A DNA stretch of 8,008 nt, from the IMG/VR virus record IMGVR_UViG_2695420427_000002. One strand, written 5' to 3'. The stretch is from a virus (lineage: Duplodnaviria; Heunggongvirae; Uroviricota; Caudoviricetes). How positions within the stretch are numbered: the stretch's first letter is position 1; the number at the start of each line of letters is the position of its first letter. The notes beneath the pieces are model-generated. The model saw only the letters and a program-made list of their open reading frames with translations. It did not search any database and was not told the origin of the DNA. The position numbers and the translations under genes were made by a program. Positions 1-8,008 of this stretch are shown here, in pieces.

Positions 1-25
1 CCCCCCGACAGACCTGTGCTATCGG

Positions 26-60
26 AAAGAAAAAAGGCCATCAGCAAAACTCTGATGGCC
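26..60 (-). terminator. Rho-independent terminator for minus-strand transcripts (end of the tRNA/late transcript)
   Basis: Perfect 9-bp inverted repeat ggccatcag (36-44) / ctgatggcc (52-60) with a 7-nt loop. On the minus strand the stem is followed by a U-run (plus-strand aaaaaa at 30-35). Confidence 0.55.
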
Positions 61-105
61 TGAATCACCTTTACCAATATTGTATGAAAAAACACGCACG
101 ACTAA

Positions 106-134
106 TTGACAATAATTTTCATTTCCATTAAAAA
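106..134 (+). promoter_or_regulatory. Candidate sigma70 promoter on the plus strand (TTGACA-17-TAAAAA)
   Basis: Consensus -35 TTGACA at 106-111, 17-bp spacer, AT-rich -10 taaaaa at 129-134. No downstream plus-strand CDS; the plus-strand hairpin at 170-235 lies about 35 nt downstream. Confidence 0.25.
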
Positions 135-169
135 AGATCGCGTAGCATTCTTAATTCATGAGGAACTTT

Positions 170-235
170 ACCCGCCAGCAATCTGAGTAGCGAAAGCTGT
201 TCATCCCCAATGTTTTTGCTGGCGGGTCCTTTTTT
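170..235 (+). terminator. Plus-strand terminator-like hairpin with T-run (possible 3' end of a small RNA)
   Basis: Perfect 11-bp inverted repeat acccgccagca (170-180) / tgctggcgggt (217-227) with a 36-nt loop, followed by tttttt at 230-235. A second GC-rich hairpin at about 246-261 is followed by T-rich sequence. Neither is followed by a U-run on the minus strand. Confidence 0.45.
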
Positions 236-674
236 CTACGGTCCTCCTCCCCGGAGGGGGGCATTTCATTATTTTTCTAATCGTTACTGGTGAGAAGGCG
301 GAAGAAAAAGCCAGTTCTTCGCCCCTAAATAACAGCATGATTCCAGTCCATGCAAAATCTGATTTCCAGCTCACACATACCGAGCACTGTACAAAAAACC
401 GCCAACCAAGGCAGTTAAGAGTGTGTTCCCGGGGTTTGCTTAGAATATTTTGTAAGTTGTCCGAAGAGATATTTACAACACCAGAATGATGCATTATCAG
501 TCCCCTGCCAGAGGTTCACTACGTAACCTGACCGACAATGCACCATTCTGGTGCTGAAAAAAGAGCACTGGAACTGCAACAAAACAACATCACAGAACAG
601 GAGATGGTAAGGAGTCAGACATTCCCACACAATATTGTGTCAGTGCAAATAACAACCTTCGTCTCAAATCTCGC

Positions 675-749
<75 letters not shown>

Positions 750-752
750 ATA

Positions 753-828
<76 letters not shown>

Positions 829-830
829 GC

Positions 831-907
831 TGGCCCACCACCGAGGACTCGAACCTCGCACCGTCAACTTAGAAGGTTGATGCTCTATCCGGATGAGCTA
901 GTGGTGG
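831..907 (-). tRNA. tRNA-Arg (anticodon UCU, reads AGA/AGG), 77 nt with encoded CCA
   Basis: Reverse complement reads CCACCACTAGCTCATCCGGATAGAGCATCAACCTTCTAAGTTGACGGTGCGAGGTTCGAGTCCTCGGTGGTGGGCCA. Acceptor stem CCACCAC/GTGGTGG (C1-G72), anticodon stem TCAAC/GTTGA with loop CTTCTAA, T-stem CGAGG/CCTCG. 2-nt spacer to the Thr tRNA. Confidence 0.85.
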
Positions 908-908
908 T

Positions 909-985
909 TGGTGGCCCTTGCTGGACTTGAACCAGCGACCTGGCGATTATGAGTCGCTCGCTCTGACCAACTGAGCTAAAGGGCC
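909..985 (-). tRNA. tRNA with CAU anticodon, probably Ile2-type (AUA-reading, lysidine-modified) rather than elongator Met
   Basis: Reverse complement reads GGCCCTTTAGCTCAGTTGGTCAGAGCGAGCGACTCATAATCGCCAGGTCGCTGGTTCAAGTCCAGCAAGGGCCACCA. Acceptor stem GGCCCTT/AAGGGCC, anticodon loop CTCATAA. The anticodon and T arms resemble enterobacterial ileX-type tRNA as I recall it. 1-nt spacer to the Arg tRNA. Confidence 0.85.
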
Positions 986-994
986 GGAGGCAGA

Positions 995-1023
995 ATAATA
1001 ACCATATGTCATCACATCTGCAA
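995..1023 (-). promoter_or_regulatory. Candidate sigma70 promoter for the tRNA array (TTGCAG-17-TATTAT)
   Basis: Minus-strand -35 TTGCAG (plus 1018-1023), 17-bp spacer, -10 TATTAT (plus 995-1000), placing the start a few nt upstream of the first tRNA 5' end at 985. Confidence 0.35.
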
Positions 1024-1073
1024 ACTCATCTGACCACCAGCACGTTTAACGTCCTGTGCCGTTTTTCAGGTAT

Positions 1074-1096
1074 AAAAAAACCCGCATAAAGCGGGC
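1074..1096 (-). terminator. Short rho-independent terminator just downstream of the Q-position gene (tR'-like position)
   Basis: Inverted repeat cccgc (1081-1085) / gcggg (1091-1095) with loop ataaa. On the minus strand it is followed by seven U (plus-strand A-run 1074-1080). It lies about 80 bp downstream of the stop at 1175-1177. Confidence 0.5.
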
Positions 1097-1174
1097 TCTT
1101 TCAAATGTCCATGTCTGCTATTCGCCTCGCGGTACAGCTTTGCGAAGCGTACAAGAATTGAAGCAGTTTTTACG

Positions 1175-1729
1175 TCAAAAAGCAATAACTTTTTTCTCTA
1201 TACCAAAAGCCATAACCATTGGTTTGTACAAAATAAATTCTGCCACCTTTAGCCAATGCTCAATGCGTCTTTCACAGGTTCTTAAACTCCATTTCGGGTG
1301 TGCATCATTCAGCAGTTCAGCCATTTTGCGTTTGGTCATCCCCCGCCCCTCATACCGTTGCCGAAGGACGCTAATCAATCCTGGATGCTCTGCCAGCACC
1401 TCACTTATGACCCGATCAATACATAACGCCTCTGCATCAGTACAATGCGCCAGCCAGCTCTTTTGCTTACCGTTAATCATATCCCGCAAAAAAGCCTCAA
1501 GTTCAGACTTGTTCAGACCTGCTTTTTTCATCCTCCGGAGCGCCTCGTTAATTGCCGTTTTTGTCAGCTTTTTAGAGGTCAACATCAGGTTAAACATATT
1601 CCCCGTCTTACCGCCACCAATATACGACCAGCGCCCCCACATACGTAGTTTTCCCTGAATCCAGACACTTTCCAGCGTGGTGAGACGAAGGTGTTCTCCG
1701 CTTTTTCCTGTATTCGTTGGGTAAATCAT
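1175..1729 (-). CDS. 184-aa protein at the Q position; putative late-gene regulator/antiterminator by synteny only
   Basis: Start ATG at 1729-1727 is preceded by GAAAGGAGGG 7 nt upstream and overlaps the upstream stop (ATGA at 1726-1729), so the longer 224-aa track ORF is not the real start. It is the last gene before the terminator and tRNA array. No Zn-finger motif recognised, so Q identity is an inference. Confidence 0.6.
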   Translation of the reverse strand: MIYPTNTGKSGEHLRLTTLESVWIQGKLRMWGRWSYIGGGKTGNMFNLMLTSKKLTKTAINEALRRMKKAGLNKSELEAFLRDMINGKQKSWLAHCTDAEALCIDRVISEVLAEHPGLISVLRQRYEGRGMTKRKMAELLNDAHPKWSLRTCERRIEHWLKVAEFILYKPMVMAFGIEKKVIAF

Positions 1730-2016
1730 AAATATCCCTCCTTTCTCCAGATTTCTTGTGTGCGAAAAACACCTTCTGCATGCATCAGGCGTAATTCTTC
1801 TTTGGTGTAATCGCTGGTTTTTACCCGCCCGTCGATTAAATCGTGGCACGAGCTACAGGCAATCGCTGCCTGCATATCGTGTGGCTTTATCGCTGTTCCG
1901 CACGTTCCCGCCAGTCGGTAATGCGCCAGCACAGACGTTTCCGGATCGTGATTGCAGTAGCCAGGAATTCTGACGGTGCACATCTGCCCCCGCGCCGCTT
2001 TACGTAAATCCACCAT
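1726..2016 (-). CDS. 96-aa Cys-rich YbcO-like (DUF1364-type) nin-region protein
   Basis: Four Cys in a C-x7-C ... C-x2-C-H arrangement (CTVRIPGYC ... CSSCH), and the same 96-aa length as E. coli DLP12 YbcO as I recall it. TAATG overlap with the upstream gene at 2014-2018. Confidence 0.6.
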   Translation of the reverse strand: MVDLRKAARGQMCTVRIPGYCNHDPETSVLAHYRLAGTCGTAIKPHDMQAAIACSSCHDLIDGRVKTSDYTKEELRLMHAEGVFRTQEIWRKEGYL

Positions 2017-2615
2017 TACGCAAACTCCAGCAGCTGCGCGGCCACATTTTCGACTTGTTCCGGAGAGGAAAATTTACGGAACAGAATCCAGTTCCACAGC
2101 ACATTCAGAACAGATTTATAAACCTGCTGAAACTCGGTTTCGTCCATATTCGCAAAAGCGATGGATTTTGCCCGACGCCCGCGGCTACCGTCCGGATAAA
2201 AATGTTCGGTGTAAAATCCAGCCTGAATGGTTACCCACTCGCGAAAAGCCTCAAACGACTTTAGCAATGCCGTATCCCGGGTTCTGCGTGTCGCAACTGT
2301 ATTCAGATATTGCTCTGCGGCTTCGCTCAGAGCTGGCGTATGTTCCCGACCTACTGATTCGCACAGGTAATCAACGAAACCAGACAGCAGTTCTCGTTCG
2401 CGAGGCGTGATCGCCCCACCGACCGGAGTCCAGTAATCGAATCCCAGTTGCAGGAGTTTGAAAAAACGCTTGTGGAATGCGTAGTTACGCACACGCTTAA
2501 AGTCTGCGTGTATCCACTCACCTGTTTTGATTTGATGCAGAAAATCGCAACTCTCCGGCGTCGCCGGGAGAAGTAATCCGGAAGAGGTTTGTTTGATCAG
2601 TTGTATATGCGCCAT
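2016..2615 (-). CDS. 199-aa conserved prophage protein of unknown function (copy 1 allele)
   Basis: ATG at 2615-2613 with GGAG-type Shine-Dalgarno upstream (cggagaactacgATG). Translationally coupled to the YbcO-like gene. Present in all three cassette copies. Confidence 0.65.
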   Translation of the reverse strand: MAHIQLIKQTSSGLLLPATPESCDFLHQIKTGEWIHADFKRVRNYAFHKRFFKLLQLGFDYWTPVGGAITPRERELLSGFVDYLCESVGREHTPALSEAAEQYLNTVATRRTRDTALLKSFEAFREWVTIQAGFYTEHFYPDGSRGRRAKSIAFANMDETEFQQVYKSVLNVLWNWILFRKFSSPEQVENVAAQLLEFA

Positions 2616-2662
2616 CGTAGTTCTCCGCTGGCGCAGTAGAATGGGTGTTCAGCCCGTTATGT

Positions 2663-2691: not shown

Positions 2692-2797
2692 AGGATGCTC
2701 TGACTCGCAATTCATCCAGCAGTTTATCATTTCCCATAATGTCACTTACCCTCATCGGTAAAAAAATTGCCTTTCGACCATAGAAGCAGTTTTTACG

Positions 2798-3352
2798 TCA
2801 AAAAGCAATAACTTTTTTCTCTATACCAAAAGCCATAACCATTGGTTTGTACAAAATAAATTCTGCCACCTTTAGCCAATGCTCAATGCGTCTTTCACAG
2901 GTTCTTAAACTCCATTTCGGGTGTGCATCATTCAGCAGTTCAGCCATTTTGCGTTTGGTCATCCCCCGCCCCTCATACCGTTGCCGAAGGACGCTAATCA
3001 ATCCTGGATGCTCTGCCAGCACCTCACTTATGACCCGATCAATACATAACGCCTCTGCATCAGTACAATGCGCCAGCCAGCTCTTTTGCTTACCGTTAAT
3101 CATATCCCGCAAAAAAGCCTCAAGTTCAGACTTGTTCAGACCTGCTTTTTTCATCCTCCGGAGCGCCTCGTTAATTGCCGTTTTTGTCAGCTTTTTAGAG
3201 GTCAACATCAGGTTAAACATATTCCCCGTCTTACCGCCACCAATATACGACCAGCGCCCCCACATACGTAGTTTTCCCTGAATCCAGACACTTTCCAGCG
3301 TGGTGAGACGAAGGTGTTCTCCGCTTTTTCCTGTATTCGTTGGGTAAATCAT
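2798..3352 (-). CDS. 184-aa Q-position protein, copy 2 (identical protein to copy 1)
   Basis: Identical translation to 1175-1729, same Shine-Dalgarno and ATGA coupling. Here it is followed after 15 bp by the unique junction, not by the terminator and tRNAs. Confidence 0.6.
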   Translation of the reverse strand: MIYPTNTGKSGEHLRLTTLESVWIQGKLRMWGRWSYIGGGKTGNMFNLMLTSKKLTKTAINEALRRMKKAGLNKSELEAFLRDMINGKQKSWLAHCTDAEALCIDRVISEVLAEHPGLISVLRQRYEGRGMTKRKMAELLNDAHPKWSLRTCERRIEHWLKVAEFILYKPMVMAFGIEKKVIAF

Positions 3353-3639
3353 AAATATCCCTCCTTTCTCCAGATTTCTTGTGTGCGAAAAACACCTTCT
3401 GCATGCATCAGGCGTAATTCTTCTTTGGTGTAATCGCTGGTTTTTACCCGCCCGTCGATTAAATCGTGGCACGAGCTACAGGCAATCGCTGCCTGCATAT
3501 CGTGTGGCTTTATCGCTGTTCCGCACGTTCCCGCCAGTCGGTAATGCGCCAGCACAGACGTTTCCGGATCGTGATTGCAGTAGCCAGGAATTCTGACGGT
3601 GCACATCTGCCCCCGCGCCGCTTTACGTAAATCCACCAT
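3349..3639 (-). CDS. YbcO-like 96-aa protein, copy 2
   Basis: Identical translation to 1726-2016. Confidence 0.6.
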   Translation of the reverse strand: MVDLRKAARGQMCTVRIPGYCNHDPETSVLAHYRLAGTCGTAIKPHDMQAAIACSSCHDLIDGRVKTSDYTKEELRLMHAEGVFRTQEIWRKEGYL

Positions 3640-4238
3640 TACGCAAACTCCAGCAGCTGCGCGGCCACATTTTCGACTTGTTCCGGAGAGGAAAATTTAC
3701 GGAACAGAATCCAGTTCCACAGCACATTCAGAACAGATTTATAAACCTGCTGAAACTCGGTTTCGTCCATATTCGCAAACGCGATAGATTTCGCCCGACA
3801 CCCACGGCTACCGTCCGGATAAAAATGCTCGGTGTAAAATCCGGCCTGAATGGCTACCCACTCGCGGAAAGCCTCAAACGACTTTAGCAATGCCGTATCA
3901 CTGGTTCTGCGTGTCGCAACTGTATTCAGATATTGCTCTGCGGCTTCGCTCAGAGCTGGCGTATGTTCCCGGCCTACTGATTCACACAGGTAATCAACGA
4001 AACCGGACACCAGTTTTCGTTCGCGAGGCGTGATCGCCCCACCGACCGGAGTCCAGTAATCGAAACCCAGTTGCAGGAGTTTGAAAAAACGCTTGTGGAA
4101 TGCGTAGTTACACACACGCTTAAAGTCTGCGTGTATCCACTCACCTATTTTGATTTGATGCAGAAAATCGCAACTCTCCGGCGTCGCCGGGAGAAGTAAT
4201 CCGGAAGAGGTTTGTTTGACCAGTTGTATATGTGCCAT
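3639..4238 (-). CDS. 199-aa conserved prophage protein, copy 2 (divergent allele, 7 aa differences)
   Basis: ATG at 4238-4236 with Shine-Dalgarno (ccggagaaagccgATG). The 213-aa track ORF begins at a TTG at 4280 and is probably not the true start. Differs from copies 1 and 3 at T/I, R/C, EL/KV, R/S, T/A and R/C. Confidence 0.65.
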   Translation of the reverse strand: MAHIQLVKQTSSGLLLPATPESCDFLHQIKIGEWIHADFKRVCNYAFHKRFFKLLQLGFDYWTPVGGAITPRERKLVSGFVDYLCESVGREHTPALSEAAEQYLNTVATRRTSDTALLKSFEAFREWVAIQAGFYTEHFYPDGSRGCRAKSIAFANMDETEFQQVYKSVLNVLWNWILFRKFSSPEQVENVAAQLLEFA

Positions 4239-4276
4239 CGGCTTTCTCCGGTGGCACGGTGTTACACAGCAGGAGT

Positions 4277-4564
4277 TCAATCCTGCTCAAGATTGTAGAT
4301 GAGTTTATTCTTCAGCAAAAGCAGAAAACCAGCCTTAAAACCAATCTCTTTCAAAACCCGTAATGATGTGACAAATTCGTCCTCACGCAAAATAAAACCG
4401 TCCGTCAGAAGTCCATTACAAAAATAAAATAACACAGCACCGCTCTTCCTTTGTTGAGATTGCAAACATCTAATGCGGCAATGGCTGACAATCGCTCCAT
4501 TCTCAACGCGCACAGCATAGAGGCCATTTTCACTAAAAATTTCACGCAATTCTTCGATTTTCAT
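4277..4564 (-). CDS. 95-aa hypothetical protein, first gene of the operon (at the position rem occupies in E. coli Qin)
   Basis: ATG at 4564-4562 with GGAAGG about 10 nt upstream and a candidate promoter about 80 bp upstream. Identical second copy at 6275-6562. Function unknown. Confidence 0.5.
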   Translation of the reverse strand: MKIEELREIFSENGLYAVRVENGAIVSHCRIRCLQSQQRKSGAVLFYFCNGLLTDGFILREDEFVTSLRVLKEIGFKAGFLLLLKNKLIYNLEQD

Positions 4565-4645
4565 CTTCAGAATCCTTCCAGATAAATAGCTCTCCCCTGT
4601 TCGGGGTCCATCCCTCTTCTCCCTGCGCGCTACTTAAGTGAGTCG

Positions 4646-4673
4646 ATTCTATCTGCGAAGGTGCGCGAATCAA
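4646..4673 (-). promoter_or_regulatory. Candidate sigma70 promoter for the 95-aa / 199-aa / YbcO-like / Q-position operon (TTGATT-16-TAGAAT)
   Basis: Minus-strand -35 TTGATT (plus 4668-4673), 16-bp spacer, -10 TAGAAT (plus 4646-4651), about 80 bp upstream of the 95-aa gene start. Confidence 0.4.
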
Positions 4674-4693
4674 ATTCACCGGAAATAAACAAC

Positions 4694-4736
4694 AAAAAAC
4701 CCGCCGAAACGCTGAGAGATCACAGCGATGGGCGGG
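4694..4736 (-). terminator. Rho-independent terminator downstream of hok
   Basis: Nested hairpin: outer arms cccgcc (4700-4705) / ggcggg (4731-4736), inner stem cgctg/cagcg. On the minus strand it is followed by six U (plus-strand aaaaaa 4694-4699). A 9-bp GC stem gggcgggga/tccccgccc at 4778-4805 lies in the hok 3' UTR. Confidence 0.55.
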
Positions 4737-4813
4737 TTAAGTGCGGGTGCGTTGAGGATGCCTGACACATCAGAGGTGGGCGGGGATGGGATCAGCTCCC
4801 CGCCCGGTCACTC

Positions 4814-4969
4814 TTACTTCCTGGATTCGTAGTCTACGAAGACAGCGACCTCCGTCTGGCCGGTTCGGATTCGTACCTCACAGAGGTCTTTCCTCGTTAC
4901 CAGTGCCGTCACTATGACGGTTAAACAGATGACGATCAGGGCGATTAACATCGCCTTTTGCTGCTTCAT
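4814..4969 (-). CDS. hok: Hok/Gef-family type I toxin (51 aa), copy lacking its own promoter
   Basis: MKQQKAMLIALIVICLTVIVTALVTRKDLCEVRIRTGQTEVAVFVDYESRK: single transmembrane helix followed by the Hok-family LTRK-LCE-R-R-G-EVA-F motif, close to HokD/RelF as I recall it. Shine-Dalgarno AAGGAG upstream of the ATG at 4969. The track ORF is an in-frame upstream extension to 5026. Confidence 0.85.
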   Translation of the reverse strand: MKQQKAMLIALIVICLTVIVTALVTRKDLCEVRIRTGQTEVAVFVDYESRK

Positions 4970-5047
4970 AGCCTGCTTCTCCTTGCCTTTCGGCATGTAA
5001 GAGGCTAACCTACATGTGCAAAGCATGAAATTGGCCTCAGATTAATG

Positions 5048-5350
5048 TTAAGCGTCTTGCCGGACGCGTAATGTTAACTGGGGCTTTTCTCTATCTGCCT
5101 TTTGGTGTTCATGCCTGAAAAGTTCAGACTTGTTCAGACCTGCTTTTTTCATCCTCCGGAGCGCCTCGTTAATTGCCGTTTTTGTCAGCTTTTTAGAGGT
5201 CAACATCAGGTTAAACATATTCCCCGTCTTACCGCCACCAATATACGACCAGCGCCCCCACATACGTAGTTTTCCCTGAATCCAGACACTTTCCAGCGTG
5301 GTGAGACGAAGGTGTTCTCCGCTTTTTCCTGTATTCGTTGGGTAAATCAT
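5048..5350 (-). pseudogene. Truncated Q-position gene: first 76 codons fused at the repeat junction to the hok leader, giving a 24-aa unrelated tail
   Basis: Identical to the 5' part of 1175-1729 down to about 5120. The translation then diverges (ELFRHEHQKADREKPQLTLRVRQDA) because the sequence beyond 5119 is the end of the neighbouring repeat unit. Confidence 0.75.
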
Positions 5351-5637
5351 AAATATCCCTCCTTTCTCCAGATTTCTTGTGTGCGAAAAACACCTTCTGC
5401 ATGCATCAGGCGTAATTCTTCTTTGGTGTAATCGCTGGTTTTTACCCGCCCGTCGATTAAATCGTGGCACGAGCTACAGGCAATCGCTGCCTGCATATCG
5501 TGTGGCTTTATCGCTGTTCCGCACGTTCCCGCCAGTCGGTAATGCGCCAGCACAGACGTTTCCGGATCGTGATTGCAGTAGCCAGGAATTCTGACGGTGC
5601 ACATCTGCCCCCGCGCCGCTTTACGTAAATCCACCAT
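5347..5637 (-). CDS. YbcO-like 96-aa protein, copy 3
   Basis: Identical translation to 1726-2016. Confidence 0.6.
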   Translation of the reverse strand: MVDLRKAARGQMCTVRIPGYCNHDPETSVLAHYRLAGTCGTAIKPHDMQAAIACSSCHDLIDGRVKTSDYTKEELRLMHAEGVFRTQEIWRKEGYL

Positions 5638-6236
5638 TACGCAAACTCCAGCAGCTGCGCGGCCACATTTTCGACTTGTTCCGGAGAGGAAAATTTACGG
5701 AACAGAATCCAGTTCCACAGCACATTCAGAACAGATTTATAAACCTGCTGAAACTCGGTTTCGTCCATATTCGCAAAAGCGATGGATTTTGCCCGACGCC
5801 CGCGGCTACCGTCCGGATAAAAATGTTCGGTGTAAAATCCAGCCTGAATGGTTACCCACTCGCGAAAAGCCTCAAACGACTTTAGCAATGCCGTATCCCG
5901 GGTTCTGCGTGTCGCAACTGTATTCAGATATTGCTCTGCGGCTTCGCTCAGAGCTGGCGTATGTTCCCGACCTACTGATTCGCACAGGTAATCAACGAAA
6001 CCAGACAGCAGTTCTCGTTCGCGAGGCGTGATCGCCCCACCGACCGGAGTCCAGTAATCGAATCCCAGTTGCAGGAGTTTGAAAAAACGCTTGTGGAATG
6101 CGTAGTTACGCACACGCTTAAAGTCTGCGTGTATCCACTCACCTGTTTTGATTTGATGCAGAAAATCGCAACTCTCCGGCGTCGCCGGGAGAAGTAATCC
6201 GGAAGAGGTTTGTTTGACCAGTTGTATATGTGCCAT
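5637..6236 (-). CDS. 199-aa conserved prophage protein, copy 3 (recombinant allele)
   Basis: The 5' end matches copy 2 (V at residue 7, same upstream sequence) while the body matches copy 1 at all the variable sites. Confidence 0.65.
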   Translation of the reverse strand: MAHIQLVKQTSSGLLLPATPESCDFLHQIKTGEWIHADFKRVRNYAFHKRFFKLLQLGFDYWTPVGGAITPRERELLSGFVDYLCESVGREHTPALSEAAEQYLNTVATRRTRDTALLKSFEAFREWVTIQAGFYTEHFYPDGSRGRRAKSIAFANMDETEFQQVYKSVLNVLWNWILFRKFSSPEQVENVAAQLLEFA

Positions 6237-6274
6237 CGGCTTTCTCCGGTGGCACGGTGTTACACAGCAGGAGT

Positions 6275-6562
6275 TCAATCCTGCTCAAGATTGTAGATGA
6301 GTTTATTCTTCAGCAAAAGCAGAAAACCAGCCTTAAAACCAATCTCTTTCAAAACCCGTAATGATGTGACAAATTCGTCCTCACGCAAAATAAAACCGTC
6401 CGTCAGAAGTCCATTACAAAAATAAAATAACACAGCACCGCTCTTCCTTTGTTGAGATTGCAAACATCTAATGCGGCAATGGCTGACAATCGCTCCATTC
6501 TCAACGCGCACAGCATAGAGGCCATTTTCACTAAAAATTTCACGCAATTCTTCGATTTTCAT
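6275..6562 (-). CDS. 95-aa hypothetical protein, second copy
   Basis: Identical to 4277-4564, with the same Shine-Dalgarno and upstream promoter candidate. Confidence 0.5.
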   Translation of the reverse strand: MKIEELREIFSENGLYAVRVENGAIVSHCRIRCLQSQQRKSGAVLFYFCNGLLTDGFILREDEFVTSLRVLKEIGFKAGFLLLLKNKLIYNLEQD

Positions 6563-6643
6563 CTTCAGAATCCTTCCAGATAAATAGCTCTCCCCTGTTC
6601 GGGGTCCATCCCTCTTCTCCCTGCGCGCTACTTAAGTGAGTCG

Positions 6644-6671
6644 ATTCTATCTGCGAAGGTGCGCGAATCAA
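6644..6671 (-). promoter_or_regulatory. Candidate operon promoter, second copy (TTGATT-16-TAGAAT)
   Basis: Same sequence as 4646-4673 at the 1998-bp offset. Confidence 0.4.
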
Positions 6672-6691
6672 ATTCACCGGAAATAAACAAC

Positions 6692-6734
6692 AAAAAACCC
6701 GCCGAAACGCTGAGAGATCACAGCGATGGGCGGG
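6692..6734 (-). terminator. Terminator downstream of hok, second copy
   Basis: Same sequence as 4694-4736 at the 1998-bp offset. Confidence 0.55.
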
Positions 6735-6811
6735 TTAAGTGCGGGTGCGTTGAGGATGCCTGACACATCAGAGGTGGGCGGGGATGGGATCAGCTCCCCG
6801 CCCGGTCACTC

Positions 6812-6967
6812 TTACTTCCTGGATTCGTAGTCTACGAAGACAGCGACCTCCGTCTGGCCGGTTCGGATTCGTACCTCACAGAGGTCTTTCCTCGTTACCA
6901 GTGCCGTCACTATGACGGTTAAACAGATGACGATCAGGGCGATTAACATCGCCTTTTGCTGCTTCAT
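6812..6967 (-). CDS. hok: Hok/Gef-family type I toxin (51 aa), copy with its native upstream region
   Basis: Identical to 4814-4969. Its leader extends into unique sequence at 7118-7194 that contains a promoter candidate. Confidence 0.85.
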   Translation of the reverse strand: MKQQKAMLIALIVICLTVIVTALVTRKDLCEVRIRTGQTEVAVFVDYESRK

Positions 6968-7143
6968 AGCCTGCTTCTCCTTGCCTTTCGGCATGTAAGA
7001 GGCTAACCTACATGTGCAAAGCATGAAATTGGCCTCAGATTAATGTTAAGCGTCTTGCCGGACGCGTAATGTTAACTGGGGCTTTTCTCTATCTGCCTTT
7101 TGGTGTTCATGCCTGAAGCAGATAGCCTCAAGCACCCGCAGTC

Positions 7144-7173
7144 ATTCTACTTACCTCGCCAATATGAAATCAA
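7144..7173 (-). promoter_or_regulatory. Candidate hok mRNA promoter (TTGATT-18-TAGAAT)
   Basis: Minus-strand -35 TTGATT (plus 7168-7173), 18-bp spacer, -10 TAGAAT (plus 7144-7149). Predicted start about 170 nt upstream of the hok ATG, consistent with the long leaders of hok-family mRNAs. Lies outside the repeat, so only this hok copy has it. Confidence 0.35.
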
Positions 7174-7194
7174 TCAGAAAGGTGCCCCATAAAA

Positions 7195-7881
7195 TCACTC
7201 CTTCTCTTCTTTACCGTAGTGGAGTTGACCAATTTTGATAAGAGGGCGTCCCTGAGATTTGCGGTGTAGATTGGTATCGCGCAGAGAATACACACAGCCA
7301 CAATATTCCTGCTGATAGAATTTTTCGCGCTTGCTGATTTCAATCATACGGGACGAGCCGCCCTGCTTGCGCCAGTTATAATCCCAGTACACCATGCCCG
7401 GATAATGCGCGACGGCTCGCCGCCCACAGTCGTTAACCTGCTGCATATTTTTCCAGCGTGAAATGCCCAGTGAACTGCTGATCACACTGAAACCATTTTC
7501 AGCGGCGTACAGCGCTGTCCGCTCAAAACGCATGTCAAAACACATGGTGCAACGGATCCCTCGTTCGGGCTCCCATTCCATTCCTTTGGCTCGTTCAAAC
7601 CAGTTGTCTGTGTCGTAATCAGCATCAATAAACGGCACGCCGTGTTGTTCAGCAAAGCGAATATTCTCATCCTTACGAATTAAATACTCTTTCTGAGGAT
7701 GAATGTTCGGGTTGTAGAAAAAGATGGTGTAGTCGATTCCCGAGGCCTGAAGCGCCTCCATCACCTCACCGGAACATGGAGCACAGCAAGAGTGCAGTAG
7801 TAGTTTGTTTGCCCCGTTTGGGAGCTCCAATTTGGGCCGTTTGAAATCAGCAACTGTCATAAATATGTTTATTGGGGTCAT
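7195..7881 (-). CDS. queH: QueH-like epoxyqueuosine reductase (DUF208 family), 228 aa
   Basis: Long clean ORF with the Cys-rich HSCCAPCS motif near the N-terminus and a C-terminal CGC motif, which I recognise as the DUF208/QueH signature. No obvious Shine-Dalgarno at either candidate start (7881 or 7860). Confidence 0.6.
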
Positions 7882-8008
7882 AAAAATATCAAAGAGTGTA
7901 GCATTAGAACGGGGCTATCGGAAACAGATGTGTGACTGCTCCCCGCCCTTTCGGGTGGTCTCCTGATGATTTGAGGGTGCAGAAATCCCTCCGGTTAAGG
8001 ATTAAATT

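Follow-up and report, generated by a model that had tools for sequence, protein, structure and literature searches.

A QueH-family gene carried as cargo by lambdoid prophages of Escherichia coli

The stretch of DNA described here (hereafter the window, 8,008 nt) comes from IMG/VR virus record IMGVR_UViG_2695420427_000002 and contains a queH gene next to a hok/sok toxin–antitoxin locus. As the longest open reading frame (ORF), queH spans 7195..7881 on the minus strand, uninterrupted over 228 codons plus a stop, and the other long ORFs of the window all lie on this strand as well. Directly downstream is the type I hok/sok locus (6812..7173, minus strand), consisting of a mok ORF (6812..7024, minus), hokD (6812..6967, minus; the RefSeq annotation in the reference prophage described below), a sok/hok leader (6962..7137, minus) that fully matches Rfam family RF01794 at 117 bits, and a promoter-like site for hok found by a promoter scan (7173..7144, minus). 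Downstream of the queH stop codon (7195-7197), this site follows after 21 nt and the Rfam leader match after about 57 nt, so queH is directly upstream of the hok promoter and co-oriented with the prophage genes, as the original prediction had it. Four phage tRNA genes (675-985, minus) were detected by ARAGORN: Gly-UCC, Thr-UGU, Arg-UCU, and one with a CAU anticodon.

The coding sequence of queH probably starts at a second ATG at position 7860, giving a gene at 7195..7860 (minus strand) that encodes 221 amino acids plus a stop, and the upstream ATG at 7881 is probably unused. We favor this start because the seven codons between the two ATGs vary freely among copies from four independent contexts (including a version reading MNLINTF), with only 1–6 differing positions among the same copies in the 221 codons that follow; because one IMG/VR contig has a 1-nt insertion between the ATGs that shifts the upstream ATG into another frame without disrupting the 221-aa ORF; because chromosomal queH orthologs begin at the equivalent of the second ATG; and because RefSeq calls this start in a near-identical genome. 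The interval given in the original prediction (7195-7881) thus has the correct stop end and frame, with a start end that is probably 21 nt too long.

In a Pfam search, the ORF at 7195..7881 matches PF02677 (QueH, formerly DUF208) with an E-value of 1.9e-65 and 220.6 bits (curated cut-off 23.5 bits), covering profile positions 1–174 of 175 and hence constituting a full-length family match. By sequence alone, it also retrieves the crystal chains of Thermotoga maritima QueH (PDB 7lc5, E 5e-22), and both matches are far beyond chance. An AlphaFold model built on 36 diverse homologs (mean pLDDT 93.2, pTM 0.89) superposes on 7lc5 in Foldseek with a TM-score of 0.92 (target-normalized) or 0.75 (query-normalized) and an rmsd of 1.5 Å. 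The top five PDB matches of the model are all T. maritima QueH entries, followed by the [4Fe-4S] sulfurtransferases TtuA and LarE at E-values of about 1e-4, ten orders of magnitude weaker. An identical protein in the near-identical genome carries the RefSeq name ‘epoxyqueuosine reductase QueH’. The DUF208/QueH assignment that had been read from the letters is therefore borne out by the profile search, which returned PF02677 and no different family, by the match to solved-structure sequences, and by the predicted fold. NCBIfam gave no match at E-values up to 0.01; this library apparently lacks a QueH model, so that the null result reflects its content and does not count against membership.

The residues conserved in the family are also present. 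Against an alignment of 83 full-length representatives (drawn from a 1.8-billion-protein library) and a curated set of 36 homologs, the window protein retains every invariant or near-invariant column of the family: C32, C33, P35, C36, N57, N59, P62, E65, Y66, R69, W94, E106, R110, C111, C114, R118, K144, C194, G195, and C196 (228-aa numbering). The seven conserved cysteines among these (C32, C33, C36, C111, C114, C194, and C196) complete the pattern CCxPC ... CxxC ... CGC and include counterparts of all six cysteines of T. maritima QueH. In line with PDB entry titles, we take the cysteines of this pattern to be the probable ligands of a [4Fe-4S] cluster and an adjacent iron, metal-binding roles that Li et al. 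reportedly described in 2021. T. maritima QueH (PDB 7lc5, 7lc7, 9deu) thus has the same fold and is likewise a full-length family match, at about 30% identity to the window protein. It differs in having Asp13 (mutated to Asn in PDB entry 9dco) at a position where the window protein has a cysteine. Since 69 of 75 family representatives also have a cysteine there, this residue appears to be the family norm, and the only structurally characterized enzyme would be a member that is atypical at this position.

The part of the window that holds queH (5120-8008) is 99.3% identical to positions 18121-21009 of a prophage locus in E. coli FDAARGOS_944, which serves here as the reference prophage (L001). 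Its minus strand reads int, xis, recE, cI/cro-type repressors, YdaT, a DnaC-like ATPase (ydaV), and DUF977, followed by a hypothetical gene, queH, hokD, a hypothetical gene, DUF1367, and YbcO/DUF1364, and then by a DUF1133 Q-like antiterminator, four tRNAs, holin/lysozyme/spanin genes, terminase, and head and tail genes. Host genes (ybhA, modCBA) begin only past the integrase, about 11.5 kb beyond queH. The same slot, with replication genes on one side and hok on the other, is occupied by queH in a Rac-like prophage of E. coli 042, in an SCU-171 prophage whose Q/RusA module differs and whose tRNA set is Ile-Arg-Arg, and in HannyBb, an isolated phage (8581-9267 of locus L002) in which the gene is annotated as ‘hypothetical protein’. 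Because phage genes surround queH as far as the integrase and the slot recurs in four contexts, queH is prophage-internal cargo and not host flank. The comparison with related genomes thus places it inside the prophage boundary, and it is not part of a conserved backbone of prophage-free strains.

Compared with the single-copy reference prophage, the window is a partial tandem triplication with junctions at about 2632-2780 and 5119/5120. Window positions 1-2632 correspond to 16624-19254 of the reference (98.9%) and positions 2780-5119 to 17779-20118 (99.8%), and queH occurs once, in the colinear segment at the end. Three copies each are present of the DUF1133 Q-like, YbcO, and DUF1367 genes, and two each of mok/hok and a 95-aa ORF. 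This ORF, located between hok and DUF1367 (6275-6562 and 4277-4564, both minus), is conserved in the reference prophage, where it is annotated as a ‘hypothetical protein’, and matches nothing in Pfam. At the first junction, 147 nt (2633-2779) are without counterpart in the reference. At the 5119/5120 junction, the third copy of the Q-like DUF1133 gene (5048-5470, minus) is truncated to 140 aa, and the hok copy at 4814-5026 is missing the upstream part of its leader and its promoter; the Rfam sok match is found only at the hok/sok locus adjoining queH. Among complete E. coli genomes, none is colinear with the whole window or has its repeated-module arrangement, and the triplication may be a genuine amplification, the product of recombination between sibling prophages, or an artifact of assembly.

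Homology between different prophages stops about 50–70 nt upstream of the queH start and resumes through hok, indicating a mobile cassette. When window positions 7000-8008 were compared by megablast, matches ended at query position 932 in most genomes, and a multiple alignment shows the same edge. The conserved upstream edge of the cassette accordingly spans 7861..7931 (minus strand), with similarity to most other E. coli prophages ceasing near 7931. Just inside this boundary is a predicted promoter candidate (7895..7923, minus) with a weak −35 element, TTCCGA (7923..7918; TCCCGA in other copies), a 17-nt spacer, and an extended −10 element, TGcTACACT (7903..7895). The −35 agrees with consensus at about 3 of 6 positions and the −10 at about 4 of 6, and in the promoter scan this site fell below the consensus threshold, as did all sites upstream of queH. 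The sequence TGCTACACT is invariant in all of the best 80 viral-contig copies and in the four independent prophage and phage contexts, and homology between contexts ends about 10–40 nt upstream of it. Transcription from the candidate would start near 7887 and produce an AU-rich leader of about 27 nt, in which no Shine–Dalgarno sequence was found. The 148 nt upstream of queH showed no unusual RNA structure (z = −0.73), leaving a riboswitch or attenuator at this position unsupported.

On the downstream side, a mok/hok ORF starts less than 250 nt from queH in 63 of 78 viral contigs (among the best 80 from IMG/VR), making hok/sok, rather than the tRNAs, the gene set most often linked to queH. One or more contigs (2698536677_000006; L041, 1494-3510) have, in place of the hok gene next to queH, a type II restriction–modification pair: a methylase of the C5 cytosine type (PF00145, E 4e-54) and a restriction enzyme of the NgoMIV family (PF09015, E 1e-126). 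The position directly downstream of queH therefore appears to be a hotspot for addiction or defense modules. The hok region, in turn, is found without queH in many more genomes than carry queH, and also in Stx phages.

Searching with the gene alone, we found queH in 995 of 5426 complete E. coli genomes (about 18%; in 985 of them coverage was 80% or more), scattered widely along the genome and almost always chromosomal. Only 3 of the 1017 queH places were on plasmids, which may be phage-plasmids. By comparison, queG was present in all 5426 genomes. This agrees with the statement in the original prediction that E. coli K-12 uses QueG rather than QueH for this step, and it means that every queH-positive strain has two non-homologous enzymes for one reaction. 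The notion of queH as accessory cargo likewise holds up, given its patchy occurrence, its many chromosomal positions, and its location within lambdoid prophage early regions in the contexts inspected. Within IMG/VR, 189 viral contigs contain queH relatives, and in the best 80 of these the 221-aa ORF is intact in every case, with five protein variants in all. The PHROGs family matching the window protein, phrog_3217, carries the label ‘unknown function’ and has a profile that starts only 33 residues into the protein, thereby leaving out the CCxPC motif. Among GenBank phages, HannyBb is the only convincing isolated phage with a close queH copy; the other tblastn matches were short unannotated metagenomic fragments or large, probably bacterial records.

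Phage-borne copies differ from one another by a dN of 0.002–0.012 and a dS of 0.09–0.27 (dN/dS 0.02–0.06), which reveals strongly purifying selection and speaks against decay as a passenger. Outside Escherichia, the nearest relatives, at 89–92% amino acid identity, are found in Scandinavium, Kluyvera, and Enterobacter species, followed at 80–87% by Erwinia, Pantoea, Serratia, Photorhabdus, Providencia, and others. These chromosomal proteins (80–92% identity for those of Scandinavium, Kluyvera, Enterobacter, Erwinia, Photorhabdus, Providencia, and Serratia) are of equal length and have the same motifs. Four of the loci were inspected (Photorhabdus, Providencia, Scandinavium, and Enterobacter quasihormaechei), and all are chromosomal contexts containing no phage genes, with queH adjoining tmcA/purC in Providencia. 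As the closest relatives reside in such non-phage contexts, the phage gene is a captured host-type housekeeping gene, probably from within the Enterobacteriaceae. Synonymous sites are saturated relative to the Photorhabdus and Providencia copies, so the gene was not captured recently from either lineage.

The original prediction raised the question of whether tRNA genes and a tRNA-modification enzyme travel together, and they do so only loosely. Among the best 80 IMG/VR contigs, 28 of the 32 with at least 7 kb downstream of queH have a tRNA array. However, these arrays come in six compositions, located 2.6–7 kb away across different Q antiterminator modules, and none of the 128 phage tRNAs in queH contigs has a GUN anticodon, so the phage tRNAs are not substrates for queuosine modification. 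Each also occurs alone: HannyBb has queH and, in the 17-kb region read with ARAGORN, no tRNA (its tiny ‘hypothetical’ ORFs were considered as mis-annotated tRNAs and rejected on this result), and 933W has the ileZ-argN-argO tRNA genes and no queH. In the window, queH and the array are 6.2 kb apart, compared with 2.6 kb in the single-copy reference, because the intervening module is triplicated. The CAU-anticodon tRNA is called Met by ARAGORN and tRNA-Ile by RefSeq, and is presumably a lysidine-modified AUA reader like ileZ of 933W. We conclude that queH and the tRNA array form a common phage architecture with a translation theme, and are neither an enzyme–substrate pair nor a co-inherited unit. 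Their rationales differ as well. The codons read by the phage tRNAs (AGA, AGG, AUA, ACA, and GGA) are 2–7 times more common in the reference prophage than in a host gene sample. For the codons decoded by queuosine-modified tRNAs, NAU/(NAU + NAC) is 0.54 in the prophage and 0.57 in the host sample (p = 0.21). A special phage need for these codons is thereby rejected, and host-like usage fits a benefit at the level of the host better than a phage-specific decoding requirement.

How might a phage-borne QueH act? QueH is a cobalamin-independent reductase of epoxyqueuosine (oQ) that is unrelated to QueG, as described in PMC5615194 (citing Zallot et al. 2017), and the same paper and PMC9508795 give tRNA-Asp, -Asn, -His, and -Tyr as the substrates of both enzymes. 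QueG requires cobalamin (PMC4646009). Bacteria grown on glucose-salts medium lacking B12 contain oQ34, and those in rich medium Q34, according to PMC6850298 (citing Frey et al. 1988). Most plausibly, and with a probability that we put at roughly 65%, the prophage gene encodes a functional QueH, captured by a lambdoid phage from an enterobacterial chromosome, that completes queuosine (Q) without B12 in the lysogen or infected cell. The gene would form a short cassette of the early-right (‘nin’) region, flanked by the replication genes on one side and the Q antiterminator module on the other, and usually joined to the hok/sok addiction locus. As an iron-sulfur, cobalamin-independent enzyme, its product would reduce oQ to Q at position 34 of the four tRNAs, serving as a back-up to QueG when B12 is unavailable and oQ would otherwise accumulate. 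E. coli does not synthesize cobalamin de novo, and since QueG needs this cofactor, a B12-independent enzyme could be of benefit. The gut is usually rich in corrinoids, which weakens a rationale based on B12 limitation in that habitat. Nor are oQ and Q known to differ in decoding, which makes the benefit of the final reduction uncertain. The weak promoter candidate, the missing terminator, the unremarkable upstream RNA, and the departure from the solved T. maritima enzyme at Asp13 likewise tell against this reading.

By analogy with its family, the phage enzyme should be independent of B12 and should catalyze the conversion of oQ34 to Q34 without cobalamin. We infer that it is catalytically active, that it is expressed from its own extended −10 element as opposed to read-through from the early promoter, and that it provides a selective benefit. 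A bolder version of this proposal casts a widespread family of E. coli lambdoid prophages as agents of lysogenic conversion for the tRNA epitranscriptome, in which a QueH made from its own promoter would free Q completion from external cobalamin. We regard this version as tentative and, on balance, doubtful.

As the main rival, the gene for the same enzyme could be a lytic auxiliary gene, silent in the lysogen and expressed only after induction, by antiterminated early-right read-through, which would maximize Q-containing tRNA for the synthesis of late proteins instead of helping the lysogen. The position of queH in the delayed-early nin region, co-oriented with replication and Q genes, would suit such a role, as would the lack of any upstream promoter above the scan threshold and of a terminator after queH (no terminator-like site was found in 6600-8008 on either strand), and the tRNA genes of the same prophages, which match their own codon bias, make translation tuning a theme. 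We nevertheless consider it unlikely, because the host-like NAU/NAC usage gives no sign of a demand peculiar to the phage, too little tRNA would probably be turned over in a lytic cycle lasting tens of minutes for a change in modification to matter, the conserved extended −10 motif falls exactly inside the cassette boundary, and the partner locus hok/sok is expressed autonomously. That queH is a neutral passenger, hitch-hiking beside hok/sok or the restriction–modification pair with no benefit of its own, seems improbable. Its tight linkage to these modules and its redundancy with core queG are what such a passenger would show, but a dN/dS this low over the observed synonymous divergence, the intact reading frame in all of the best 80 of 189 contigs, the complete set of catalytic-site residues, and the persistence of queH where hok has been replaced all speak against it.

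Slightly less credible still is recruitment to another task, either in 7-deazaguanine processing of phage DNA or in altering anticodon modification to evade tRNA-targeting toxins or defense nucleases. Phages do use queuosine-pathway enzymes for DNA modification (PMC6884629, PMC10516641), and conflict genes, hok and the restriction–modification pair among them, cluster in the nin region; yet no homolog of dpdA/tgt, folE, or queC/D/E is annotated in the 32-kb prophage, none of the PADLOC anti-phage defense models matches the window protein, and its 80–92% identity to housekeeping QueH of Enterobacterales with unchanged conserved residues makes a substrate switch unlikely. The alternative raised in the original prediction, that queH is host backbone simply marking the prophage edge, is refuted despite the chromosomal location of close homologs in other genera, as about 11.5 kb of phage genes, ending with the integrase, separate queH from host ybhA in the near-identical genome, 82% of E. 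coli genomes lack queH and its coordinates in the others vary widely, and HannyBb carries it as an isolated phage.

A functional, B12-independent QueH supplied by the prophage, our preferred reading, has partial parallels in known systems. QueG performs the same reaction on the same substrates according to PMC5615194 and PMC9508795, and is present alongside QueH in queH-positive strains, but it has an unrelated fold and cofactor and belongs to the core genome (5426/5426), in contrast to the accessory queH (995/5426). A comparable arrangement of two redundant final-step enzymes per cell exists in S. aureus, which has both QueG and QueH, differently expressed, with cofactor availability as the proposed reason (PMC13443448). 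There, both are treated as the bacterium's own features and neither as phage-borne (PMC13443448), whereas in E. coli the second enzyme comes on a prophage. Queuosine-pathway genes are also phage-borne in the 7-deazaguanine DNA clusters (FolE/QueD/QueE/QueC plus DpdA; PMC6884629, PMC10516641). These clusters act on DNA and comprise early-pathway enzymes and a transglycosylase, whereas the window prophage has only the last, tRNA-level enzyme. Among lambdoid phages, morons and other cargo, such as ileZ-argN-argO and stx of 933W, are likewise variable genes at fixed slots with sharp homology boundaries. A classical moron is a gene with its own promoter and terminator; in the queH cassette, by comparison, the promoter is only a candidate, no terminator was found, and the hok promoter follows 21 nt past the stop codon.

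The QueH family, its structure, and the automatic annotation of the window protein are already known. Its setting on a temperate phage differs from the chromosomal housekeeping setting of known QueH, and in the literature searched on QueH/DUF208 with phage or prophage we found no paper on prophage-borne queH in E. coli. Apart from this setting and the gap in annotation, queH is a conventional member of a characterized enzyme family, and a real but fairly ordinary case of a phage carrying a host-type housekeeping gene. The gap itself (phrog_3217 labeled ‘unknown function’, the HannyBb copy ‘hypothetical protein’) is easy to fix. If lysogenic conversion were the correct reading, this would be, as far as we found, the first described temperate phage to supply a cofactor-independent isozyme for host tRNA modification, and the consequences in B12-poor niches would include altered anticodon modification and possibly effects on translation, stress phenotypes, and sensitivity to toxins that act on Q34-tRNA. 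Given an active prophage enzyme, about a fifth of E. coli strains would finish queuosine without vitamin B12, whereas the rest cannot, so that a mobile element would make strains differ in tRNA modification. This would bear on the reading of oQ/Q measurements and of queG mutant phenotypes in non-K-12 strains, and a tRNA-modification enzyme would join the short list of translation cargo of temperate phages, which at present consists mostly of tRNA genes.
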